Shown here piece after piece: positions 6,605 through 7,160 of a stretch of DNA of 28,536 nucleotides. The translations under genes and the position numbers were made by a program. This stretch comes from a virus: UHGV virus genome UHGV-1508137; one strand, 5' to 3'. The notes under the pieces are model-generated. The model was not told the DNA's origin, made no database searches, and saw nothing but the letters and a program-made list of their open reading frames with translations. Each line of letters starts with the position of its first letter. The stretch's first letter is position 1.

Positions 6605-6649
6605 TACCCCTACAGCGAGAAAAATAGTAAAATCCTCTTACCCCTACAG
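6605..6649 (+). repeat. two copies of an 11-bp direct repeat tacccctacag (6605-6615 and 6639-6649) flanking a tagtaaaat -10-like element upstream of the 6666 ORF
   Basis: Exact repeat read directly; lies in the putative promoter of the plus-strand gene. Confidence 0.4.
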
Positions 6650-6665
6650 TAAGAGAGTGATTTAT

Positions 6666-7160
6666 ATGTCTGATGAAAAAGGAATAATAAGTAGGATTAC
6701 AGATGCAGTTTCTGGTGCCGGAGGTGCTCTGATGAGTGCTGTTGGCGCAGTAAAGGAAATCCAGAAAATGCAAATAGACTACTCAGTAAAAGAAAAAACA
6801 TACGAACTTGTCGATAAGCTCATGGATGCCCAACAGCAGCAAATGTCACTTAATGAGCTTTTGATGATTTCTAAGGACAAGATTATTGAGCTTGAAGAAA
6901 AGATAAATCGAGCCTCTAAGTGGGAAGAGGAAAAGAAAAACTATGAGATGTATACACCTACTGTTGCTACGGTGGTTTATCGTCTCAAAAAATCGGCAAA
7001 TACCGGTCAGCCAATGCACTATCTTTGCGCTCAATGCTATGAATCTTCTGTGAAATCCATACTCCAATACGAAGGATTTGCACCACCTTCTAACCATAGG
7101 ATGAGATGCCATAGGTGTAACGCCTCCTATCTGTTCCCTAAATCTGCATTTTCTAAATAA
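6666..7160 (+). CDS. hypothetical protein at the sieB position, 164 aa: Gly/Ala-rich N-terminal segment, central coiled coil, C-terminal C-x2-C...C-x2-C zinc ribbon
   Basis: ORF with aagagag RBS ~11 nt upstream of ATG 6666 (GTG at 6657 also in frame); CAQC...CHRC motif; convergent with N and overlapping its 3' end by 8 nt. Confidence 0.6.

Follow-up and report, generated by a model that had tools for sequence, protein, structure and literature searches.

The 164-residue open reading frame at the sieB position of this lambda-like prophage encodes, as judged from its sequence identity and predicted fold, Rip1 (ring interacting pore 1), 99% identical to the structurally and functionally characterised protein of phage HK446, and it lies behind a copy of the regulatory module that precedes sieB in lambda and P22. 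The window, by which we mean the whole stretch of 28,536 nucleotides that was analysed, carries the integrase-side genes, cI, N, Nu1, terminase A and portal of a lambda-like prophage. We are confident, although short of certain, that rip1 acts here as a single-protein prophage abortive-infection defence which has replaced sieB between a remnant of ral and N, and we propose that a sas-like antisense RNA would silence Rip1 in lytic growth. The reading frame, the parts of its product and its convergent neighbour are as follows.

6666 to 7160, plus strand: rip1 (ring interacting pore 1), 164 aa, with the ATG at 6666 and the stop codon at 7158-7160
6684 to 6767, plus strand: N-terminal Gly/Ala-rich amphipathic helix (codons 7-34; AF2 helix 7-34), the pore-forming part according to the literature
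6780 to 6935, plus strand: long central helix, a predicted coiled-coil stalk (codons 39-90; AF2, pLDDT 66-82)
6942 to 7139, plus strand: predicted beta-rich CxxC...CxxC zinc-ribbon domain (codons 93-158; AF2 strands, pLDDT 72-89)
7153 to 7476, minus strand: N antiterminator gene, convergent with rip1 and sharing 8 bp with its 3' end

A phmmer search of the PDB matched the product to Rip1 of phage HK446 (9oox, E=1.4e-105), with 162 residues aligned (3-164) at 99% identity. The single aligned difference is Y96, which is a histidine in HK446 (Y96H); if residues 1 and 2, which fall outside the alignment, are read off the tabulated sequences, 163 of 164 residues are common to the two proteins. The entry, a cryo-EM structure released in February 2026, combines Rip1 of Escherichia phage HK446 with the small terminase of Enterobacteria phage T6 and holds 12 chains of the ‘ring interacting pore 1’ sequence. 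A GTG at 6657 offers an alternative start that would give 167 aa; the solved HK446 protein begins MSDEK. The first-pass annotation, made from the DNA alone, had described a plus-strand 164-aa reading frame converging on N with a 3' overlap, which is exactly what is found, and had proposed a defence gene at the sieB position, a proposal now borne out by the 99% identity to a prophage-encoded pore-forming antiphage protein.

The AF2 model of Rip1, built from 24 homologues, has a mean pLDDT of 73, rising to 80-89 over most of the C-terminal half. Structure prediction had been put forward as a check on the gene, and the model indeed superimposes on Rip1 from the PDB (Foldseek: 9oox_M, E=1e-17, TM 0.92, rmsd 1.6 A, 99% identity); it displays the amphipathic helix, long helix and C-terminal domain that make up the Rip1-family architecture. 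What had been read from the sequence as a Gly/Ala-rich amphipathic N-terminal segment is predicted as the helix of residues 7-34, with an Eisenberg hydrophobic moment of 0.42, the heptad-like central region becomes the long helix 39-90, and the CAQC...CHRC zinc ribbon falls in the beta-rich domain 93-158, where its four cysteines (C121, C124, C148, and C151) are invariant in the 24 homologues. The absence of clear multi-pass transmembrane helices had also been remarked upon, correctly, as no 19-residue window of Rip1 reaches transmembrane grade; we conclude that the protein has no transmembrane segment because the best Kyte-Doolittle mean over 19 residues is 1.28.

The mechanism of Rip1 is known from the work of others, and we have taken it from secondary summaries, among them a 2026 review and a meeting report (PMC13434031 section 5, PMC12908700, and 10.64898/2026.04.30.721860); the primary description is that of Patel, McCarthy, Taylor et al. 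(2026, Nature 651:1060). As summarised there, Rip1 is a prophage protein that shows no toxicity by itself, and phages escape it by mutations in the portal protein (Pseudomonas phages) or the small terminase (E. coli phages) (PMC13434031, PMC12908700). Eleven small-terminase subunits form a ring that is contacted by the C-terminal halves of 12 Rip1 molecules, which surround it as a second ring, and the N-terminal amphipathic helices build a pore (PMC13434031). The pore is described as releasing dye from liposomes and making holes in cells that lead to premature lysis, and the cell dies before the invading phage has matured (PMC13434031, PMC12908700). By analogy with the 99%-identical HK446 protein, Rip1 of the window would assemble into rings, form pores and protect its host in the same manner.

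The family is large and poorly labelled. A Rip1 profile search returned 2964 clusters at 50% identity, nearly all of 150-175 aa, and the gene of the window still goes under ‘hypothetical protein’ in RefSeq E. coli genomes and in phage records. The rip1 product matches PHROG 1244, whose label is ‘unknown function’, and a divergent member of the family carries the older name hkaP. Scans against Pfam, NCBIfam and PADLOC gave no match to the rip1 product, and the same was true of nine or ten distant relatives; the sub-threshold zinc-ribbon and coiled-coil scores that these scans produced for Rip1 and its relatives were set aside as noise. The complete rip1 cassette occurs in 96 of 5426 complete E. 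coli genomes, and 826 of the 833 full or partial cassette matches in such genomes are chromosomal.

Comparison with lambda shows where the gene was exchanged. DNA homology ends at 6650, is missing across rip1 and is back at 7153 with the stop codon of N, whose DNA is 96.9% identical to that of lambda N; the sieB coding region has therefore been cleanly replaced by rip1. The segment shared with HK446 (99.4% identity) begins at 6565, exactly at the first hairpin of the upstream region. That the reading frame might be a divergent orthologue of SieB or Esc, standing at the sieB position behind the sieB promoter, would agree with its position, its orientation and its upstream DNA, all of which equal those of lambda and P22 sieB, and with a comparable length (164 aa against 184 and 192 aa). 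The proteins themselves leave this idea with practically no weight. BLASTP of Rip1 against lambda SieB gave a best E of 9.4, profile-profile alignment by hhalign with seven SieB proteins gave a probability of 0.6%, and SieB has strongly hydrophobic segments (best 19-residue means of 1.73 in lambda and 3.01 in P22) of a kind that Rip1, at 1.28, lacks, besides which the coding region is a clean replacement. The doubt about SieB orthology expressed at the outset was thus well placed, the alignment check having given no full-length match, and identity to Rip1 in both sequence and structure rules the orthologue out.

The same early reading had placed the gene between ral and N. This is right on the N side, but ‘ral’ (6359-6430, minus strand, and 6393-6424) survives only in part. 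Compared with lambda it has lost 104 bp from its interior, the alignments on either side of the gap overlap by ~32 bp, and a 23-aa reading frame (MVWAIRTTAMIARELGKQNNKAA) is left; orf28 is intact (6440-6526, minus strand). A second departure from lambda is seen at the position of rexA/rexB, between cI and pL, where two unrelated reading frames stand at 7904-8524 and 8521-9009, both on the minus strand. Their products (206 aa, PHROG 5820, and 162 aa, PHROG 5893) belong to families of unknown function and had no match in PADLOC, and HK542 and HK244, both phages of lambda immunity, carry the same pair with 96% identity. We consider the pair a candidate for a second lysogen-expressed defence locus.

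The DNA upstream of rip1 has a history of its own. A sensitive blastn search with 6560-6668 aligned 6560-6650 at ~87% identity to lambda 34391-34481 and to P22 11398-11487, both of which lie directly upstream of sieB in the respective phage, and on the strength of this alignment we identify the ~100 bp upstream of rip1 as the regulatory module that sieB has in lambda and P22. Read on its minus strand, the module would serve as the template of an antisense RNA, with the following parts.

6549 to 6675, minus strand: sas-like antisense RNA template, its extent taken from alignment to the 127-nt P22 sas reads
6635 to 6655, minus strand: sas stem-loop I, within the sas-like template
6599 to 6619, minus strand: sas stem-loop II, within the sas-like template
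6566 to 6598, minus strand: interleaved helices of the sas 3' end, within the sas-like template

Small-RNA sequencing of P22 (2026) recovered ‘P22A-sas’ as a minus-strand RNA of 127 nt at 11387-11513, which contains CUGUAGGGGU twice together with an AACCAC/GCCUG/GUGGUU/CAGGC element; its reads were present only in infected cells, the comparison being with uninfected non-lysogenic cells (PMC13397905). The minus strand of the window is identical to P22 sas at 73 of the last 75 bases, and both CUGUAGGGG(U) motifs are present in the sas-like sequence. Only the 5' third of the RNA, past repeat 2, departs from P22, being complementary to another cargo gene. As placed by alignment, the template extends over the start of rip1, taking in the Shine-Dalgarno-like sequence at 6651-6657 and the ATG at 6666. 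Ranade and Poteete described sas in 1993 as a 105-nt antisense RNA of P22 which, in superinfection, reportedly causes sieB mRNA to be translated into the internal inhibitor Esc instead of SieB.

Other identities for the upstream hairpins were considered. A riboswitch-like element or pseudoknot in the 5'-UTR and a minus-strand intrinsic terminator (an analogue of tL1) were both dropped once the homology to sas had been found; the terminator-like U-tract that follows stem-loop I in the window is not shared by other variants, L030 among them. Between 6200 and 7700 an Rfam scan returned nothing meaningful, sas having no Rfam family. The ‘boundary sequence’ bsq4 of Sf6 is a different element, near tL2a.

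On the plus strand the module reads as a putative promoter region, whose elements are interspersed with those of the antisense RNA.

6605 to 6615, either strand: direct repeat copy 1 (TACCCCTACAG), which forms the top of sas stem-loop II when read on the minus strand and occupies the -35 position of the putative promoter when read on the plus strand
6628 to 6633, plus strand: -10-like TAAAAT of a putative sieB-type promoter for rip1, between the repeats and conserved in position
6639 to 6649, either strand: direct repeat copy 2, which supplies the loop and 3' arm of sas stem-loop I when read on the minus strand and falls at about +1 of the putative rip1 transcript when read on the plus strand
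6651 to 6657, plus strand: Shine-Dalgarno-like AAGAGAG, 8 nt before the ATG, read from the sequence

The two copies of the repeat had been reported at the start as exact and 34 bp apart, and so they are (6605-6615 and 6639-6649, the 34 bp separating their starts). We estimate the chance of an exact 11-mer repeat within ~100 bp at roughly 1e-3. The repeat pair is kept upstream of 52 of 75 rip1-related viral loci with a spacing of 33-36 bp; among 55 unique modules the spacing is 34 bp in 45, and in 48 a TAnAnT hexamer (TAAAAT, TAAACT, TATAAT, or TAATAT at the -10-like position) stands 7-8 nt before the CCCC of repeat 2. A consensus promoter scan at the repeats found no full -35/-10 pair, and in the plus-strand counterpart of stem-loop I the AAGAGAG falls within the 3' arm or beside it. 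The notion of a direct-repeat promoter, as first put forward, is therefore partly right: there is a -10-like TAAAAT of conserved position between the repeats, but the repeats are not simply promoter elements, because they belong to the sas antisense RNA on the opposite strand. We infer that a weak promoter with a poor -35 between the repeats would drive rip1 in lysogens.

The repeats stand at about -35 and about +1 relative to the conserved -10-like hexamer, and their spacing is held at 33-36 bp, which also suits a reading in which they are mainly DNA-level sites for one regulator, of the host or in any case independent of Rip1 and SieB, with the hairpins incidental; we know of no candidate for such a regulator. 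The repeat sits in different structural positions in stem-loops I and II, as this reading would have it, and the variant locus L038 adds to the case. Here a sas-like module (4885-5003) precedes a 53%-identical Rip1, and both repeats read CCGCAACGTAA rather than ACCCCTACAG; the 34-bp spacing is kept, TATAAT lies between the repeats, and the 3' helices covary (GCCTGA/TCAGGC and ACCTCA/TGAGGT). This concerted change is as expected for one factor and is not predicted by the hairpin model alone, yet it fits two readings, a single DNA-binding factor or both sas loops matching one mRNA leader. We nonetheless think it improbable that the sites act chiefly at the DNA level, and give the idea little weight: the module serves unrelated cargo in phages of different immunity and with different hosts, an abundant minus-strand RNA of P22 spans exactly this region (PMC13397905), and the stems that flank the repeats covary. 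DNA-level and RNA-level roles of the repeats are, in any case, mutually compatible. CsrA and LexA sites, judged by eye, did not fit the repeats.

Support for an RNA-level role comes from the structure that the module has maintained. The ~110-bp upstream block, in the upstream DNA of the homologues on 75 viral contigs, is more conserved than the Rip1 protein, and runs in the order of a GCCTG...CAGGC hairpin interleaved with AACCAC...GTGGTT, repeat 1, the -10-like hexamer and repeat 2. We aligned 30 distinct variants of the module from upstream of sieB, rip1, hkaP and one other reading frame, and examined stem-loop II (with repeat 1) and the two interleaved 3' helices on this alignment. In these three helices, 93% of cells are paired across the 30 variants, compared to 26-39% in slid controls; six pairs show compensatory changes, that is, changes on both sides, and values as high were attained in 0 of 500 shuffles. 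G-U pairs in the 3' helices favour the minus strand (9 versus 1), and those in stem-loop II are strand-neutral (11 versus 11). Stem-loop I (with repeat 2) folds in most variants in a variable register, and uses G-U pairs that are found only in minus-strand RNA.

Leftward transcription over rip1 and the sas template has one evident source, pL.

7658 to 7686, minus strand: pL promoter (TTGACA-17-GATACT, 10/12 matches), homologous to the lambda pL/oL region

We take sas itself to be derived from pL. The cargo genes give a result that is consistent with such an origin, although it is not proof: no minus-strand -10/-35 is conserved inside the cargo genes over the sieB, rip1 and hkaP loci, and a dedicated sas promoter within the cargo gene was accordingly rejected. 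A lambda-type cI lies in the window along with the phage's own Nu1, terminase A and portal. We suggest the following scheme. In the lysogen, cI would repress pL, no sas would be made, and the weak plus-strand promoter would give low, constitutive Rip1. Upon induction, or superinfection by a phage carrying the module, leftward transcription from pL would run through rip1, and the antisense transcript would be processed to a stable sas-like RNA, which would pair with the rip1 leader, Shine-Dalgarno site and AUG and so shut off Rip1 synthesis. A rip1-carrying phage would thereby be spared its own defence, for which the phage's Nu1 or portal rings might otherwise act as a trigger. At the other end of the gene, the nutL boxB hairpin followed by TAAATTTTTA (7587-7601, plus strand) scores as a plus-strand intrinsic terminator, at which transcripts of rip1 that continue antisense across N could stop.

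The scheme departs from that of P22 in one respect. An Esc-like internal start is not conserved in rip1, nor is any Shine-Dalgarno site conserved for one, and we rejected internal initiation because in several of the sas-linked homologues residues 1-75 contain no internal Met. The logic therefore cannot be identical to the SieB/Esc switch of P22, and with no Esc-like product conserved the switch would be a plain off-switch here. It might be argued from this very point, Rip1 lacking the internal start upon which the P22 switch depends, that the sas module is merely an inherited promoter cassette, which gives either no sas-like RNA or one that leaves Rip1 unaffected, any self-immunity that is needed coming from Rip1 not recognising the phage's own Nu1 or portal; the lack of conservation in the cargo-specific 5' third of sas, past repeat 2, points the same way. 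Although we give this reading some weight, we think it unlikely. Although they are situated outside the putative promoter core, on its upstream side, the 3' helices and stem-loop II have been kept ~87-98% identical, with compensatory changes, beside Rip1 genes that have diverged to 27% identity, and conservation of helices in such a place is hard to explain by promoter function alone. We therefore retain the silencing of Rip1 by a pL-derived, sas-like RNA as the preferred explanation.

The module stands before more than one kind of gene. The module with its repeat pair is found at 52 of the 75 rip1-related viral loci and is mostly absent from the more distant, non-enterobacterial-type relatives of Rip1. 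In 126 module-bearing loci, the first reading frame encodes a Rip1-family protein in 72, SieB in 52 and an unrelated 83-aa product in 1, proportions that are not representative because the sample includes the 52 loci found through Rip1. The 83-aa reading frame (MDLEMDIPDMVFPISL...), for which no PHROG match was found, stands behind the sas module in L082 and L100, downstream of a ACCCCTACAGCGAGA match (two contigs in a narrower scan). At L093, L114, and L123, the module is truncated within repeat 2 and has no cargo. In phage HK630 (L079:1501-2096), compared with 6565-7160 of the window, a module of 98% identity precedes an HkaP that is only 27% identical to Rip1, which places a recombination junction at the start codon.

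From this we draw a wider proposal, put forward tentatively and rated at somewhat less than an even chance: in enterobacterial lambdoid phages the sieB locus may serve as a socket for defence genes, in which a constant sas module accepts exchangeable cargo and a sas-like RNA from pL acts as a self-immunity switch independent of the cargo. The cargo would be SieB, one of several Rip1 subfamilies (down to 27% identity) or another small reading frame, and the RNA would silence whichever abortive-infection gene occupied the socket, here Rip1. Copy 2 of the repeat would then be a second recognition loop for the same mRNA leader, which would explain why both copies in L038 changed together. To our knowledge, the link between rip1 and sas has not been described, within a literature check that stopped short of the primary Rip1 paper; this coupling and the socket view are possibly the only unreported part of what we present. 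The gene and the upstream module are both already in the literature, Rip1 since 2026 and the sas/sieB promoter region since 1993, the latter seen again in 2026.

The main practical value of the analysis lies in annotation, as Rip1 has no Pfam, NCBIfam or PADLOC model despite the ~3000 clusters at 50% identity. More generally, a prophage that carries an abortive-infection pore former responsive to terminase or portal rings faces an obvious problem of self-targeting, and a conserved antisense RNA template lying exactly over the start of rip1 is a testable answer to that problem. The locus in which rip1 and sas are joined suggests that lambdoid phages may have a common regulatory socket into which different defence genes can be exchanged.

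Among the closest known systems is HK446, whose Rip1 shares 163 of 164 residues and the fold with Rip1 of the window, and whose DNA agrees with the window at 99.4% identity over 6565-7502, a stretch that takes in N as well as the upstream module. The two phages differ in their backbone: HK446 belongs to the Hendrixvirinae and has Sf6-type immunity, whereas the window has a lambda-like backbone with lambda cI, Nu1/A and portal B. The founding member of the family, from a Pseudomonas aeruginosa prophage, has the architecture described here and likewise combines sensor and effector in one protein, but its gene is flanked by those for the small and large terminase and its trigger is portal protein (PMC13434031), whereas rip1 of the window lies in the early-left operon, at the sieB locus and behind the sas module. 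HkaP of HK620 and HK630 agrees with rip1 of the window in its family (PHROG 1244), its length of 164 aa, its CxxC...CxxC motif and its 98%-identical upstream module; a biosensor paper on HK620 mentions hkaP and gives no expression data for it. With only 27% protein identity, HkaP probably has a different trigger specificity.

The sieB/esc/sas system of P22 and lambda resembles the window in several respects. The locus, the orientation and the upstream 90 bp are the same, and the sas template has, in both, two repeat-bearing stem-loops and a structured 3' end. SieB is unrelated to Rip1, and the internal start that yields Esc has no conserved counterpart in rip1. Like sieB of P22 and lambda, rip1 of the window would be an abortive-infection gene expressed in the lysogen.
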